Of a stretch of DNA of 64,000 nucleotides, positions 3,175-44,315 are shown one piece after another. Below the pieces are notes generated by a model that was not told the origin of the DNA, did no database searches, and saw only the letters and a program-made list of their open reading frames with translations. Position numbers and translations under genes: made by a program. Source of the stretch: Desulfurococcaceae archaeon (GTDB lineage Archaea; Thermoproteota; Thermoprotei_A; Sulfolobales; Desulfurococcaceae); assembly GCA_038824035.1 (NCBI GenBank), contig JAWBBW010000003.1:1-64000 (forward strand), written 5' to 3'. Within the stretch, counting starts at the first letter, position 1. Each line of letters begins with the position of its first letter.

Positions 3175-3696
3175 ATGATGCTTATGAATCAAGTAGAAAT
3201 AGGCAGAATTGAGCACATAGCCGAGATCGATGTTTCAAAGTTGGTGGATAATATTATTGAGAGACGTGGTTGTCATAGAAGCAAATTAATCCCAATACTC
3301 CAAGATATCCAAGGTGAATTAAAATACCTCCCGAGAAAAGCACTTGAATTGATTTCAAACAAGCTCAGTATACCGATCTCTGAAATAATTGCTGTAGCTT
3401 CTTTTTATCATCAGTTCAGATTAGAACCCATCGGAGATTATATTTTTCAAGTATGTTTAGGAACAGCGTGCTATCTAAAAGGGGCGAACGATGTTTACGA
3501 AGCATTAAAATTAATTGCCGATAAGACTCGTATAACCGTTGAAAAAGCACGATGTTTTGGATGTTGTAGCCTTGCCCCGGTTATGATGGTAATTAATACC
3601 AAGACGGGTAGCAAGGACATATATGGAAGACTAAATCCAAATGATGCGAGAAAAATAGCGTCAAAGTACTTAGCGATAACACGTAGCAAGAGGTAA
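3175..3696 (+). CDS. NuoE/HydC-like [2Fe-2S] diaphorase subunit
   Basis: LIPILQDIQ, VASFYHQF, VCLGTAC...RCFGCCSLAP. Confidence 0.92.
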   Translation: MMLMNQVEIGRIEHIAEIDVSKLVDNIIERRGCHRSKLIPILQDIQGELKYLPRKALELISNKLSIPISEIIAVASFYHQFRLEPIGDYIFQVCLGTACYLKGANDVYEALKLIADKTRITVEKARCFGCCSLAPVMMVINTKTGSKDIYGRLNPNDARKIASKYLAITRSKR

Positions 3697-7424: not shown

Positions 7425-8750
7425 TTGATCTACTTGAAAATGGCGTTAATATCCCTAACAGGATGTGAAGGATGTTTCTACAATTTAATCGATGAACGAG
7501 TATTAGGATTACTGGAGAAATATAACGTAGAATTAGTTGATTGGCGATTTCTAGGAATAAGAAAAAGTGACGAATACGATATCGCAGTAGTTGAGGGCTC
7601 TGTTGTTAATGAAAATGACTTAAAGAAGCTTCAATTAATAAGGAAGAAATCGAAGATCCTGGTTGCTATCGGTACATGCGCTATTCAGGGAGGTGTTCAA
7701 GCTGGAATACAGCGCGAAATAGAAAAACACGAATCTAAGCCTTTAGCCTCCTATGTCAAGGTGGATTACTATATACGGGGATGCCCCGTCAGGGTTGAGG
7801 AATTTCTACGATTTCTTGAAGATGTTTTAAGAGGCGAGAAGCCAGTATGGTATGAAAGAAGATTTGATCTAGTTGAACGACCAGTGTTTAAGGTAAGTGA
7901 TAGTGATGGTTTTCTAATCTTAGATTCATCTAAATGCATTGTTTGTGGCAGATGTATAGAGCTGTGTAGAATCATGCAAGCTAATGTCCTGAACTATATT
8001 AATAGAGGCATATCAACGCTTGTTTCAACTCCGTATGGAGATCGATTCGAGAGTGCTGGTTGTCACTACTGTGGTTTATGCGTAGCATATTGTCCAGTCG
8101 GTGCGATTACACATAAACTTGAAATCGATAAATTAACTAATGGTAAAGGTTTGGAGATCTATATAGAACCAGAAGCTCTTGCATCGTTAATTGAAGCCGA
8201 AGACAGCGATCTTTTGCAAATCATTAAGGCTTTATATGTGCTTGGCTATGACAAGATCATAGTATACTCTAATGCTGTACAAGTTCAACCGGGCAAAATA
8301 TATGCTAAGAGTCCCGTTGAATATCAATTCCTAAAGAGGACTTATCCAGATCTCGAAGTGGAGCTCTTAGTCCCTAAAATACCGGATAACGCGATTTATG
8401 TGACTCAATGCATGGCTTGGAGAAGACTGTTAAAAAATGCCGTAACTAGTAGAGAATTACAGATATTGATGAAAAGTATTCCTAAAGAAACGTTGTCAAT
8501 TAAACCAGGAGAACAACTTAAACAACCTATAATCAATTTGAACCCCGGTATAAGTGTAAAGTATATAAATAATCCACGAGAAATAAAGGATATGGTTGAT
8601 AAAGCCCTGGATCAAGCGTTGATCTACACAATGTGTCCTGGAGGCTGTTTAATGGGTGGTGGCCAGCCCTTGTCTAAAAACGGTTCATGGCGTTCAATAT
8701 ACGAAGCGAGATCAATGATATTGAAAAGACTGGATACTTCTTTTACTTAG
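7425..8750 (+). CDS. Chimeric subunit: [NiFe] small-subunit N-terminus + 2x[4Fe-4S] + degenerate [FeFe]-hydrogenase H-domain
   Basis: TGCEGC, VEGSV, GTCA, GCP; then CIVCGRCIELC and CHYCGLCVAYCP; C-terminal MCPGGCLMGGGQP (P3-like motif). Confidence 0.85.
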   Translation: MIYLKMALISLTGCEGCFYNLIDERVLGLLEKYNVELVDWRFLGIRKSDEYDIAVVEGSVVNENDLKKLQLIRKKSKILVAIGTCAIQGGVQAGIQREIEKHESKPLASYVKVDYYIRGCPVRVEEFLRFLEDVLRGEKPVWYERRFDLVERPVFKVSDSDGFLILDSSKCIVCGRCIELCRIMQANVLNYINRGISTLVSTPYGDRFESAGCHYCGLCVAYCPVGAITHKLEIDKLTNGKGLEIYIEPEALASLIEAEDSDLLQIIKALYVLGYDKIIVYSNAVQVQPGKIYAKSPVEYQFLKRTYPDLEVELLVPKIPDNAIYVTQCMAWRRLLKNAVTSRELQILMKSIPKETLSIKPGEQLKQPIINLNPGISVKYINNPREIKDMVDKALDQALIYTMCPGGCLMGGGQPLSKNGSWRSIYEARSMILKRLDTSFT

Positions 8751-24542: not shown

Positions 24543-25052
24543 ATGATATGTGATAACAGATGTGAAGGACCCTGTATGGGGCGGATAGCTAGTAAGTTTG
24601 GCTTTATCGATTTCAAAAACATATGTAGTGATTGCAGGGTCAATTGTTGTAGAAAATATTACGCTGTGTTATTGCCGGAAGAAGAGCCAGAATTCGAAAA
24701 CGTATCCTTCGCGATCAACACAGAAAAGGGGATTGTGAGAGGTATTGGGAGTTATGGTGGTAAGCCATGTCCATATTTATCGGAAAATGGGTTTTGCAAA
24801 ATATATGAAAAAAGACCATTTGATTGTAGATTATGGCCGGTGGTTGTATACATAGACTTAAAGACAATGGAGAAAGTCATATACTTGGACAAGGAATGCC
24901 CGGCAGTGATAGAGAACAGGATACCGCCTAGTTTGATCAACAGGATAATTGAGGAAGTCAGGAAAATAGATTTCGATGAAAAATGGTTAATCAAATACAC
25001 TCTTGCACCATGGCCTAATAACTTCATAGAGATAGCGAGAATTAGGACATGA
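24543..25052 (+). CDS. YkgJ family cysteine-cluster protein
   Basis: CSDCRVNCC...CPYL...CKIYEKRPFDCRLWP. Confidence 0.85.
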   Translation: MICDNRCEGPCMGRIASKFGFIDFKNICSDCRVNCCRKYYAVLLPEEEPEFENVSFAINTEKGIVRGIGSYGGKPCPYLSENGFCKIYEKRPFDCRLWPVVVYIDLKTMEKVIYLDKECPAVIENRIPPSLINRIIEEVRKIDFDEKWLIKYTLAPWPNNFIEIARIRT

Positions 25053-40511: not shown

Positions 40512-40594
40512 CGTTAACAAGTCTCTAACCCCGCTTTAAAACCTGTTTTTAAATTCAGGCCCACTAATTGATTACTGTATCGGCGGTGTGTGAA

Positions 40595-42049
40595 ATGAAA
40601 ACACATGTATATGTGGATACATCATCTATCATAGCTCCTCTGGACAGGAGAATATATGGCCAATTCGTAGAACATCTTGGAAAATGCATATATGGAGGTA
40701 TATGGGTTGGCGAGAACTCGAAAATACCCAATGTCAAGGGGTATAGACTCGATGTATTGAACGCTGTGAAGGAAATTAAGCCGCCGTTGATCAGGTGGCC
40801 CGGGGGCAACTTCGTCTCACAATATCATTGGATGGACGGTATAGGGCCGAGAGAGCATAGACCCAGGAGATTCGAATTAGCATGGGGTCAGGAAGAGCCG
40901 AATGAGTTTGGAACTGATGAGTATATTGAATGGATTAAAATGATTGGTGCAGAGCCATATATAGTGGTCAATGCAGGTAATGGCACACCGGAAGAAGCAG
41001 CGGCATGGGTTGAATATTGTAACTCGCCGAGGGATACATATTATGCCTCTTTGAGAAAGAAATATGGGCACAAAGAGCCATATAATGTCAAGTTATGGGG
41101 TATCGGTAACGAGCTATATGGGAGATGGCAAGTAGGTTTCTGCAAGGATGGTGAGGAGTGTGGATGGAGAACAGTGGAATTTGCTGATCACATGAGGAGG
41201 GTTGATCCAACCATAAAGTTGGTGGCTGTGGGCGTGGATATAGATCCTGAATGGAATGTGGATATGATAAGGATAGCAGGCGAATATATAGATTACCTAT
41301 CAATACACACATATATATTCACAGATAGACAGGGCAAGACATATGAAGACCTAGTGGCGTGGCCCGTTTTCATAGAAGAAAACCTCAGGAGTATTTACTA
41401 TGTGATCGAGCAAACAAAGTTCAAATATAGGATCAAGAGAGACATTAAGATCATATTTGATGAGTGGAATGTGTGGTATCCAGAAGCACAACCCCCGTAT
41501 TTAACTCAAATAACCAGCGTGAAAGATGCAGTGTTCACGGGCCTTGTGTTAAACTCCCTTCAGAGATTGGTCAAGATCGTGCCAGCGGCGTGTTTTGCCC
41601 AGACAGTTAATGTATTGCCATTGATAATCACTGATGATGAGGGCAAGATGATATTGTCACCGCAATATCTAGTCTTCAAGCTATATACAGAGGTATTAGA
41701 AGGCAACGTGGTCACGACGATCGCATCTTCGCCAGCATATAGGTCTAAGGAACTAGACAGGGAAATACCATATCTAGATGCATCGGCGGTATTTTCCAGC
41801 GATAAGACAACTCTATACTTATACGTAGTTAATAGACATCCTGAGGAGAGTGCAGAAATAATGCTACATATCAAGAACTTTAAGCCATCGACAATTAGAC
41901 ATAAATATGTAGCTGGAACATCTATCAATGATAAAAACACATTTGACAAGCCTGATAATGTTAAAATAGAGGAAAAAAGTTATGCGCTGACAACAACACA
42001 GACGGTCTCAATACCTCCTCATTCAGTTAATCTATTGATCCTGTCTTAA
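40595..42049 (+). CDS. abfA: GH51 alpha-L-arabinofuranosidase (cytoplasmic)
   Basis: YGQFVEHLGKCIYGG, RWPGGNF, FGTDE, GNE acid/base, DEWN nucleophile, AQTVNV; start taken at MKTHVY. Confidence 0.92.
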   Translation: MKTHVYVDTSSIIAPLDRRIYGQFVEHLGKCIYGGIWVGENSKIPNVKGYRLDVLNAVKEIKPPLIRWPGGNFVSQYHWMDGIGPREHRPRRFELAWGQEEPNEFGTDEYIEWIKMIGAEPYIVVNAGNGTPEEAAAWVEYCNSPRDTYYASLRKKYGHKEPYNVKLWGIGNELYGRWQVGFCKDGEECGWRTVEFADHMRRVDPTIKLVAVGVDIDPEWNVDMIRIAGEYIDYLSIHTYIFTDRQGKTYEDLVAWPVFIEENLRSIYYVIEQTKFKYRIKRDIKIIFDEWNVWYPEAQPPYLTQITSVKDAVFTGLVLNSLQRLVKIVPAACFAQTVNVLPLIITDDEGKMILSPQYLVFKLYTEVLEGNVVTTIASSPAYRSKELDREIPYLDASAVFSSDKTTLYLYVVNRHPEESAEIMLHIKNFKPSTIRHKYVAGTSINDKNTFDKPDNVKIEEKSYALTTTQTVSIPPHSVNLLILS

Positions 42050-42069: not shown

Positions 42070-42792
42070 TCGAGGGTCATTACACCTACTTTTGAATCGG
42101 GTTCTAGGTTACCAGAGATACCGGCAGCTAGTGATGTGCCATATGTAGACGCTGTCGCCCTGTTTAACGAAGACAGGTCTACACTCTCTCTGATCATAGT
42201 CAATTATCACACAACCAACAACATTAAGACCTACATAAATCTACACAACTACGAAATCGATGGCCCCATTAAAGTTGTTCAATTAACAGCGCCCGCGATT
42301 TCAGCCAGGAACACTTGGAATAACCCTGATTATGTCAAACCAGTGGAATACATAATGGAGGCTATGTCAAATAACTTGGAAATAGAATTGCCAAAGTTAT
42401 CTGTAACATTATTATTAATAAATGGTTCTGTGAAACCAGGCAGCGCGCCAGACCCATATAAGGCTGTATTCACATTGCCGGTGACTATTTCGCAGACCAC
42501 TACCCCCATTTCCACGGAACCCGCGCCGTCTCCAACCACCACTTCCACTCCCATAACACCTGTTTCCACACCGTTGATCACACCAACCCCTACACCCACC
42601 CCTGGGCCGATCACAACTACGCCCGTTCAGTCACCAACAACGCCCCCGATCACCACTCCTGTCTTGACAACTCCCACAACTCCTGCATTATCACCAACTC
42701 CATCTATACCGATTATGTATTTAGCCATACCTATTGCGCTATTAGTCACGGCTATATCATTATTTATATTGCTCAGAAAGATGAAGAAGTGA
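42070..42792 (+). pseudogene. Truncated membrane-anchored GH51 paralog: C-terminal domain + Pro/Thr linker + TM anchor, no catalytic domain
   Basis: TPTFES...VPYVDAVALF...LIIVNYH...NTWNNP...LPKLSV parallels the C-terminus of the adjacent GH51; PT-rich linker; TM ending RKMKK. Confidence 0.7.
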
Positions 42793-42797
42793 AGGAA

Positions 42798-43226
42798 TCA
42801 TGTTTTTTTCCTTGAATATACATTAAACCATATTCTCATAACTCCTTTCTCGCGCGTTACCCATTTAAACATGAGGGTGAAATTGTAAATCCCTTTTTCA
42901 ATTTCAAGTGGCGTGTCGAACCCAGGTATATTCGATGCCCTTCTCATACATGTGCCAATGGTATCTATGAAACAAGGCACATGGATCCTGTACTTACTAG
43001 TTCGCGACTCCATCAGCATCTCCATACCTATGATCGCCTGGATAAAGGGCTCGAATTTAATGGAATCCTTATCTATCTGCAAGAGAGAGGTCCAAGGTAT
43101 CTTCCACATGTATAGATCAATCCTTCTCTCGCCACGCTCTCTATCCATTTTCAACTCAACGTCAATATTTCTCGATACAATATATTGCACGAAAACACAC
43201 CACACATACAAATATACCATAGACAT
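42798..43226 (-). CDS. Hypothetical protein or gene fragment
   Basis: 142-aa ORF with no recognisable motif and no clear RBS. Confidence 0.35.
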   Translation of the reverse strand: MSMVYLYVWCVFVQYIVSRNIDVELKMDRERGERRIDLYMWKIPWTSLLQIDKDSIKFEPFIQAIIGMEMLMESRTSKYRIHVPCFIDTIGTCMRRASNIPGFDTPLEIEKGIYNFTLMFKWVTREKGVMRIWFNVYSRKKT

Positions 43227-43358
43227 AAATATGCCACTATGGAATTATAGCCATCAATCACACAATATCAAAAAATGATCACGATGCAAAAGAATTATAG
43301 AGAAAACAAAGAGATAAAACCAGTTGACAATTAATAAGGCAAGAAAAGCGTAGGAAGC

Positions 43359-43549
43359 GGCGTCCGGGGCTTTGTGCTCCGGATTAAATAAATGTAATGT
43401 CTATATTAGATCAAGACAATAAACCCAGACGACAGATAACACCGGACCCGGTTCACCCAGGCCCAGTGTCATCAGCCGCCTGAGCTTATTGTCTTGATCT
43501 AATATAGACATTACATTTATTTAATCCGGAGCACAAAGCCCCGGACGCC
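43359..43549 (-). ncRNA. Putative long-hairpin non-coding RNA (93-bp rod, 5-nt loop)
   Basis: 64-bp perfect inverted repeat (43359-43422 / 43486-43549). The 63-nt spacer pairs at 28 of 29 positions only on the minus strand (8 G-U, one U-U). TATA box upstream, T-rich tract downstream. Confidence 0.6.
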
Positions 43550-43572
43550 ATCTTTTTATTTCTTTTTTCCTA

Positions 43573-43580
43573 TATTTAAA
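43573..43580 (-). promoter_or_regulatory. TATA box for the hairpin element
   Basis: Minus strand TTTAAATA begins about 30 nt before the first hairpin base; BRE match is weak. Confidence 0.5.
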
Positions 43581-43649
43581 CTACATGTTTTGTATTTTCT
43601 TATGAAAATATGTGGGATCGTTGTGGGAGTTGTTTTGTATAAGTATTGT

Positions 43650-44315
43650 TCAAGTATTACATTTGTTTTGTATTATTTTACTGACTTCATTTATATTAGA
43701 TAAATTATCTATGAGGGTTTGATATGGCGTTATTATTATTATGTTTTTACCTTTGGCCTCGTTCTCGGCTGAGGGATGAATATAAAGCCCATACATTATC
43801 ATCAATGGATCTTTTATTTTATTCATCTCTACGAGCATCATTGTCTTTTCATAGAATAACTTGACATCCTCAGCGTGGATCCTTGACTTGGCTTCCCCTA
43901 TTATGATTATCTTTGATTTGTCAGGTATTCTCCAGCCTTCCCCGTAGTAATCGAATTCAAGTATTTTGCCATTTATGTTGAAAAACCTCCTATCTAGTTT
44001 CTCAACCTCTATGTTCAAGTACTTGTATATCCACGCTGGTAGAAAACTCCTAGCCGAATCTTCTATGATGAACCCTATTGAATCACTTAATTTACTGACC
44101 TCTCTTGCAATGTTGTTGACAAGTAGGGTCAATTTTTCAATTCTATCGGCTAATTGATTAGTATATGACTTTATTTCATCCATGTTCTTAGATAGATTTG
44201 AAACAGTGTCCCTTAAGTCGAAGATATCCTTTCTAAATTCCTGTAATTTCGATACATATGTTGTTTCACACCTTTCCTCCCTTAGTTTAAATAACCTTGT
44301 GAAAACACTTACCAC
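43650..44315 (-). CDS. Coiled-coil protein with C-terminal PD-(D/E)XK nuclease-like domain
   Basis: Heptad-rich N-terminus, then GFIIEDSAR, EFDYYG...IIGEAKSRI. Confidence 0.75.
   Translation of the reverse strand: MVSVFTRLFKLREERCETTYVSKLQEFRKDIFDLRDTVSNLSKNMDEIKSYTNQLADRIEKLTLLVNNIAREVSKLSDSIGFIIEDSARSFLPAWIYKYLNIEVEKLDRRFFNINGKILEFDYYGEGWRIPDKSKIIIIGEAKSRIHAEDVKLFYEKTMMLVEMNKIKDPLMIMYGLYIHPSAENEAKGKNIIIITPYQTLIDNLSNINEVSKIIQNKCNT

Follow-up and report, generated by a model that had tools for sequence, protein, structure and literature searches.

A 191-nucleotide stretch of a Desulfurococcaceae archaeon genome (assembly GCA_038824035.1, contig JAWBBW010000003.1; relatives are labelled Thermosphaera/Thermogladius) was found to specify a long rod-shaped hairpin, which is very likely the gene of a non-coding RNA of about 190 nt. 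It is one member of a family of rod RNAs of Desulfurococcaceae, of which we collected 32 distinct sequences and which we did not find in Rfam 15 or in the literature searched. Every copy that we found lies directly downstream, on the same strand, of a gene for an uncharacterised DUF3782 coiled-coil/PD-(D/E)XK nuclease, so the two probably work together. Expression was not examined, because no RNA data set contained the stretch and the four public runs compared were DNA contigs, and the start and end of the transcript given below are predictions.

A perfect 64-bp stem and its relatives

We analyzed a window of 64,000 nucleotides (positions 1 to 64,000 of the contig, forward strand). An earlier note, made from the sequence alone, had reported exact reverse-complementary arms at 43359-43422 and 43486-43549 and a G-U-rich inner stem read on the minus strand, and this observation is confirmed. 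A repeat search gave arms at 43359-43451 and 43457-43549, 93 nt each, 90% complementary and separated by 5 nt, and the outer 64 nt are exact reverse complements. Folded as minus-strand RNA, the stretch made 64 + 11 + 17 pairs around one mismatch and a GUGAA loop, with an energy of -171.0 kcal/mol and z = -28.9, and 0 of 200 shuffled sequences folded as well. The plus strand folded at -135.1 kcal/mol with the inner stem broken up. The 5′ arm runs from 43549 to 43457, the loop from 43456 to 43452, and the 3′ arm from 43451 to 43359. The inner stem-loop (43423-43485, minus strand) is paired at 28 of 29 positions, and we counted 8 G-U pairs and one U-U among these 29 positions, as the note had stated.

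The signals expected around a transcription unit were also as the note had described. The TATA box TTTAAATA lies on the minus strand at 43580-43573, its first T 31 nt upstream of the first paired base, 43549. A TTTT run lies at 43347-43344, 12 nt after the last paired base and inside the pyrimidine-rich tail GCTTCCTACGCTTTTCTTG. Archaeal transcription terminates at oligo-T, and this run is the presumed terminator, although termination was not assayed. The transcript would start with GG at the foot of the rod, at about 43549 (+/-2), and would end near 43344.

Among the outcomes that the note had named as counting against its reading were an assembly or fold-back artefact and many dispersed copies with target duplications. 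Neither of these two was observed. The hairpin is single-copy in the 1.33-Mb, 29-contig, 99.67%-complete genome, and the only other perfect inverted repeat of 20 bp or more with arms within 400 nt is the terminal stem of the SRP RNA on another contig. The flanks read GGAAGC before and ATCTTT after the arms, with no direct repeat, and a DNA-level search in 40 relatives gave only short A/T-rich chance matches. Assembled contigs of four public hot-spring runs from four studies reproduced three joins. In one run (X3), record 7 joins the left flank to the whole left arm (43251-43422) and record 8 covers exactly the inner 63 nt plus 30 nt of each arm (43393-43515), as expected for perfect arms in a 31-mer graph. 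No contig spans the whole hairpin, and one of these runs may be the window's own source. In a second run (X2), record 5 extends from 43395 through the right arm into the flank, to 44600. To test a viral origin, exact 20- and 24-nt pieces of the hairpin were scanned in IMG/VR. The one hit was a chance match inside a high-GC phage gene with no hairpin, and alignment of the neighboring protein found no relative in IMG/VR.

We then searched relatives with the protein encoded upstream and looked downstream of each homologue. All of the first 15 loci (15 of 15) showed a long hairpin on the gene's strand. A covariance model (R1) built from six relatives, without the window, found the rod with filters off in 17 of 17 first loci, including the window (108.5 bits on the minus strand against 86.9 on the plus), in 3 of 3 further loci of a genus designated g35, and in 19 of 34 metagenome loci. 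A thirty-fifth metagenome locus (L110) was left out because it looked like a second record of the same stretch as another (L102). In all loci in which the rod was found, the gene-strand score exceeded that of the opposite strand. The 15 metagenome loci without a full rod are either cut short (L089 and L106) or encode proteins at most 40% identical to the window's, and two of these are bacterial and followed by ordinary terminators.

The 32 distinct sequences share a set of properties. Length is 181-193 nt in 31 of 32, the remaining one being 235 nt, and the gene-strand fold is the more stable in 32 of 32. Taken as a member of this set, the window's copy is 193 nt and folds at -172.5 against -136.6 kcal/mol, and it has the family's layout: a GNRA-like cap (GUGAA), the ACAAAA box at -43, the TATA at -30, and the nuclease gene directly upstream. 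In 17 sequences, there are 180 G-U pairs against 23 A-C 1x1 oppositions. The caps are GAAA, GACA, GAUAA, GUGAA and the like, that is, GNRA loops or GNRA-like pentaloops on the gene strand only. The family is not coding, as the median longest ATG-started ORF is 12 aa and 9 of 32 have no ATG-started frame.

The sequence in the middle of the rod is unalignable between clades, yet pairing is kept. In six alignable sequences, 40 of 84 pairs carry a compensatory change and 93.8% of cells are paired, with a covariation score of 0.509 against 0.311 when shuffled (0 of 500 shuffles reached it) and at most 0.133 when slid. The inner stem-loop is the part alignable across the family, and over the 23 pairs alignable in all 32 sequences, 20 carry double changes, with a score of 0.738 against 0.268 shuffled (0 of 500) and at most 0.165 slid. 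The closest pair of species differs at 15 columns, with five double compensations, five wobble-keeping single changes, no broken pair and no loop change.

Near the foot, relatives carry an asymmetric internal loop, GCCYAG(A) on the 5′ strand opposite GGGGRUAA on the 3′ strand. The 3′ motif is present in 30 of 32 sequences and lies 69-75 nt from the cap in 29 of those 30. Two conserved sites are thus held a constant distance apart by a helix whose sequence is free, which is what one expects if something binds both ends, or if the rod serves as a spacer; this last step is an inference. By eye, we found no consensus match of the foot loop to K-turn, H/ACA, bulge-helix-bulge or tetraloop-receptor motifs, and saw no covariation between cap type and foot-loop type.

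The window's copy is peculiar in this respect. Its 64 uninterrupted Watson-Crick pairs are the longest run in the family, the next longest being 43, 35, 34, 34 and 30, and it is one of two members of 32 lacking the GGGGRUAA loop. The first ~25 nt of its outer 5′ arm (43486-43549) align, in our reading of the sequences, with the conserved 5′ end of relatives (GGYGCGCCGGGGCCYAGACCCGG type). In the outer 3′ arm (43359-43422), the homologous place, 74 nt from the cap at 43377 to 43370, reads GCACAAAG and is fully paired to CUUUGUGC on the other arm. The older inner stem keeps 8 wobbles, whereas the outer 64 bp have none. The simplest reading is that one arm was recently copied onto the other at the DNA level, by hairpin-templated repair or template switching, and that this zipped the loop shut. 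The zipped copy may be impaired or may work differently; its activity was not assayed. Long perfect runs in other members suggest that the process recurs, and it may help explain how the arms stay complementary while the sequence turns over.

Promoter layout and the predicted nuclease gene upstream

An ACAAAA box lies at -42 to -45, and a TATA-like box at -29 to -32, before the first base of the closing stem in 25 of 32 family members. The g35 clade has a different but equally placed TATA-like sequence. This layout is that of an archaeal promoter, though promoter activity was not measured, and pyrimidine-rich tails follow the rod in the relatives inspected. In the window, the promoter-proximal box ATACAAAAC lies at 43587-43595 (minus strand), with two more copies at 43632-43640 and 43665-43673. 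Only 22 copies of this 9-mer occur in the genome, three of them here. The same promoter type occurs only once more in this genome, before a small basic protein gene on contig 11. A conserved 13-nt element, GTAATACTTGAAC (GTAWTACTTGAAC in relatives), lies at 43648-43660 (minus strand), just after or over the stop codon of the nuclease gene. It is the only copy in the genome and forms a palindrome in L089. No function was assigned to it, and 4 other partial sites in the genome showed no common context that would point to a regulon.

The gene upstream of the RNA, at 43650-44315 on the minus strand, encodes 221 aa as listed, with the conserved part starting near 44243. The structural model (pLDDT 85.9) shows a 75-residue helix followed by an alpha/beta domain. 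Residues E61, D62, E96, D98, E117 and K119, forming the E...D...ExK core, are invariant in 15 homologues. Pfam DUF3782 was matched weakly by 15 of 15 members (best E 2.9e-5), and the window's protein scored 15.1 bits, below the 24.4-bit cut-off. The nearest solved folds are the nuclease domains of NucS/EndoMS, MspJI, Cas4 SSO0001, Card1 and NucC, at E about 1e-3, and the ESM Atlas placed the protein among clusters named DUF3782, DUF8196 and "Chordopoxvirus fusion protein". No PADLOC defence model gave a meaningful match. The family has been called prokaryotic endonucleases on a coiled-coil stalk (PMC4786415).

The gene and the RNA stand together in at least four neighborhoods: between a membrane-peptidase-like gene and a Cys-rich gene (5 loci with both neighbors), between two other genes (2 loci), before a 431-aa gene that we read as Mre11-like from its motifs (2 loci), and, in the window, between TrkH and arabinofuranosidase remnants. 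In this genome, the usual Cys-rich neighbor sits at 24543-25052, 18 kb away. Among the 63 genomes of the family, 22 have the protein at E <= 1e-10, and the 18 of genera g1, g6 and g35 all have the rod next to it. The genomes are related, so these counts are not independent, and adjacency in four or so contexts is suggestive, not proof of interaction. In contrast, no rod lies near more distant DUF3782 homologues, namely 7 loci of genera g24, g26 and g28, 4 loci of other families, and 2 Anaerolineae loci and 1 Bathyarchaeia locus. The nuclease fold therefore does not generally need such an RNA.

We also asked whether the RNA occurs in genomes lacking the nuclease gene, an outcome that, if common, would have spoken against coupling. 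A whole-genome scan of the 63 family genomes with R1 found only the training loci plus those of genomes G002 and G070, and missed the window's own copy; a repeat on five entries, with G000 as positive control, found nothing. These scans therefore do not show absence, and the question was left undecided. A pattern scan combining promoter and motif over the same 63 genomes, of low sensitivity, found 7 known loci and one likely chance hit.

Interpretation and rival readings

The note's central inference, selection on a single-stranded RNA fold of the minus strand with its own promoter rather than a plain DNA palindrome, is supported by the related loci, which have homologous hairpins of quite different sequence but the same length. 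Of its options, a new long-dsRNA ncRNA stands, and a transcribed mobile element does not. The analysis did not choose between the proposed sub-functions (decoy, antitoxin or small-RNA precursor), the last being weakened as described below. The note had seen neither the linked nuclease gene nor that the perfect outer stem is the odd feature of this copy.

Our best explanation is that 43359-43549, on the minus strand, is the gene of an RNA transcribed from its own TATA promoter, folding into a single rod of about 90 base pairs, and inherited, and relocated, together with the nuclease gene. The hairpin, its family, the covariation, the strand bias and the linkage are results of the analysis, whereas the transcript, the partnership with the nuclease and the copying of one arm onto the other are inferred. 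In our working model, the RNA is the nuclease's partner, binding through the foot loop and the cap, which sit a fixed ~72 nt apart, and it either holds the nuclease in check, like an antitoxin, or positions it. That this is a real RNA gene of a conserved family is very likely. Functional coupling to the nuclease is somewhat more likely than not, and an inhibitory or antitoxin-like role is only a tentative guess; a very stable GC-rich rod is unlike the labile antitoxins of known systems. Equally tentative is the broader possibility of a new kind of two-part RNA-protein system in hyperthermophilic archaea, in which a double-stranded RNA "ruler" keeps a coiled-coil PD-(D/E)XK nuclease inactive or positions it, and the module behaves as a movable defence or addiction cassette. 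Recurrent arm-to-arm conversion of the DNA would, in this view, explain both the complete sequence turnover and the perfect 64-bp stem.

The main rival, which we consider possible but less likely, is that the rod RNA works on its own, for example, as an abundant regulatory, decoy or scaffold RNA in the manner of 6S RNA, its place next to the nuclease gene reflecting shared history or shared regulation. The recurrence of the promoter type before a small basic protein gene, the absence of the RNA beside distant homologues, and the 6S-like length (about 185 nt) and rod shape fit this view, as does one genome (G013) in which a second module keeps an intact RNA beside a protein frame with an in-frame TAG. 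On the other hand, the pair stays adjacent through at least four neighborhoods, and, within the family, every genome in which we found the RNA also has the gene directly upstream. There is also no large central bubble as in 6S RNA, and no Rfam model reached its threshold. A DNA-level role is unlikely, whether as a palindrome extruding as a cruciform or folding as single-stranded DNA, and serving as a target or regulatory site of the nuclease or as a replication or recombination site. The perfect arms here and runs of 30-43 perfect pairs in 6 other members suggest DNA-level homogenization, the neighbor has a DNA-nuclease-type fold, and G-T wobbles also stabilize single-stranded DNA. Yet the promoter boxes sit at a fixed distance from the first paired base in 25 of 32, the GNRA-type caps occur on the gene strand only, the foot loop is asymmetric, and the wobble bias always falls on the strand of the promoter.

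A precursor of small RNAs, cut from the duplex by a dsRNA-specific nuclease, possibly the neighbor, is very unlikely despite the long near-perfect duplex and the adjacent nuclease gene. No RNase III (PF14622) or Piwi/Argonaute (PF02171) gene was found in this genome, while control genomes gave matches, and the middle of the rod turns over completely between species, so that no conserved small-RNA sequence exists; the conserved parts are the cap and the foot. A MITE or other non-autonomous element, a transposon remnant or a fold-back artefact is a remote possibility. The long perfect arms, in a locally rearranged region next to a truncated arabinofuranosidase gene, might suggest it, but the single copy, the lack of a flanking direct repeat, the reproduced joins, and homologues at the same place relative to the same gene in 20 genome loci and 19 metagenome loci argue against it.

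Few structured RNA families are known from Crenarchaeota beyond the universal ones and guide RNAs. This one is long, almost entirely double-stranded, held to a constant length while its sequence turns over, and tied to a nuclease family widespread in bacteria and archaea yet without known function. If the RNA and the nuclease work together, this would give the first handle on what DUF3782 nucleases do, and would add a new type of RNA-protein module, possibly a defence or toxin-antitoxin-like one, in organisms living near 85 °C. The rod also raises the question of whether a ~90-bp helix stays paired while changing nearly every base through selection on RNA pairing alone, or whether the DNA arms are repeatedly copied onto each other.

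Comparison with known systems

An Rfam scan, one of the checks suggested in the note, gave 0 hits in the whole window. With permissive E-values, the only hits on the rod, here and in 9 loci, were generic hairpin matches (miRNA precursor models and one sRNA model) at 27-34 bits against thresholds of 65-100. The genome's SRP RNA is elsewhere, matching the Archaea_SRP model at 163 bits on contig 14 (C14:7745-8029). The upstream protein belongs with the DUF3782/DUF8196/PDDEXK_10 proteins annotated as "Chordopoxvirus fusion protein", having a coiled-coil stalk plus a PD-(D/E)XK domain. The literature searches, which did not extend to supplementary files, found no description of the RNA and no function or RNA partner for this protein family, which is described only structurally. 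Only one subclade, three genera of Desulfurococcaceae, carries the rod.

Bacterial 6S RNA, which binds RNA polymerase, is likewise a stand-alone gene of about 185 nt whose product folds into one long, largely double-stranded rod with a closing stem and a terminal loop, structure being conserved far better than sequence. The rod differs in being archaeal and tied to a nuclease gene, and in lacking the large central bubble that defines 6S, since the folds of the window's copy and of 16 relatives show continuous helices with only 1-nt mismatches in the middle. Binding to RNA polymerase was not assayed. Type III toxin-antitoxin systems such as ToxIN are also two-gene modules of a structured RNA and a nuclease, and the module's distribution among genera is patchy and its genomic contexts vary. 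Here, however, the RNA is a single hairpin without tandem repeats and lies downstream with its own promoter, not upstream behind a terminator, and the protein, whose toxicity alone or with the RNA was not measured, is a PD-(D/E)XK fold on a coiled coil, not a ToxN-type endoribonuclease.

Y RNA, the partner of Ro/Rsr, is a small RNA whose 5′ and 3′ ends form a long stem with a conserved internal loop near the foot, and in bacteria such RNAs are encoded next to the gene of the protein partner. The stem of the rod is several times longer and has no large loop or tRNA-like module, and no TROVE-domain gene (PF05731) was found in this genome, while control genomes gave matches. In comparison with OMEGA/TnpB-type modules, the RNA has its own promoter and no evident single-stranded guide, the nuclease is PD-(D/E)XK and not RuvC, and there are no transposon ends. 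As in those modules, a structured non-coding RNA is encoded at the 3′ side of a nuclease gene, and the two move together.

Sequence between the rod RNA gene and the arabinofuranosidase genes

We examined the region lying beyond the rod RNA gene. A full-length gene encoding a 493-aa arabinofuranosidase (40568-42049, plus strand) was immediately followed by a 218-aa ORF (42136-42792, plus strand). This ORF contained only the last ~90 residues of an alpha-L-arabinofuranosidase C-terminal domain (Pfam E 1.4e-4, below the cut-off), followed by a Thr/Pro-rich stretch and a hydrophobic tail. It looks like a partial duplicate or a rearranged gene, and it marks this region as locally rearranged. The 560 nt separating this fragment from the rod RNA (42793-43358) held only two overlapping ORFs on opposite strands, of 142 and 121 aa. 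Neither of them had a Pfam or NCBIfam match and both showed an odd composition, and this stretch is probably non-coding or decayed sequence.

A homologue (59% identity) of the Cys-rich 165-aa gene that flanks the nuclease-plus-rod module in most relatives was found at 24543-25052 (plus strand). Here, it was packed between other genes with no module beside it, so the module or its surroundings have moved in this lineage.

Repeated and conserved elements upstream of the RNA

Three copies of ATACAAAAC were found within 90 nt upstream of the RNA, at 43587-43595, 43632-43640, and 43665-43673 on the minus strand, whereas the whole genome contained 22 copies. Relatives have two or three such boxes in the same place. 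A possibility is that they constitute the binding site of a regulator.

In addition, a 13-nt element, GTAWTACTTGAAC, located directly after the stop codon of the nuclease gene, was better conserved than the protein itself. In the window, this element (43648-43660, minus strand) overlaps the stop codon. In the metagenome locus L089, it forms a perfect 10+10 palindrome (1265-1290), and in another locus, L032, an inverted second copy lies 26 nt upstream. The function of this element is unknown. We also observed that two 13-nt pieces of the A/T-rich outer stem of the rod (43386-43414 and 43494-43522) recurred, with one mismatch each, in the region just upstream of the RNA promoter (43656-43704; repeat families D2, D3, I2, and I3). 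This could be due to chance in A/T-rich sequence, or it could be a trace of where the sequence of the outer stem came from.

Promoters, modules, and hairpins at other loci

The only other ACAAAAC-N6-TTTAAATA promoter of the genome was located on contig C11, at about 3290-3533 (minus strand), where it precedes a gene for a 55-aa basic protein (MPEKLKFFDLKAK...). This protein resembles a small crenarchaeal chromatin protein, although the resemblance was not tested here. One relative, G013, carried two nuclease-plus-rod modules, one on contig 73 (loci L039/L085) and one on contig 34 (locus L024). In one of them, the protein frame contained an in-frame TAG while the RNA was intact (12 G-U pairs, -157.5 kcal/mol).

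In the genome that contains the window, the only other long perfect inverted repeat was a perfect 27-bp terminal stem closing the SRP RNA (163 bits), on contig C14 at 7745-8029 (minus strand). Lastly, bacterial homologues of the nuclease (62-63% GC) were followed by a GC-rich hairpin plus a T-run, at 1233-1299 in locus L111 and at 1604-1670 in locus L115, which R1, the covariance model built from relatives, picked up weakly (23 bits). This is an ordinary intrinsic terminator and not the rod RNA.
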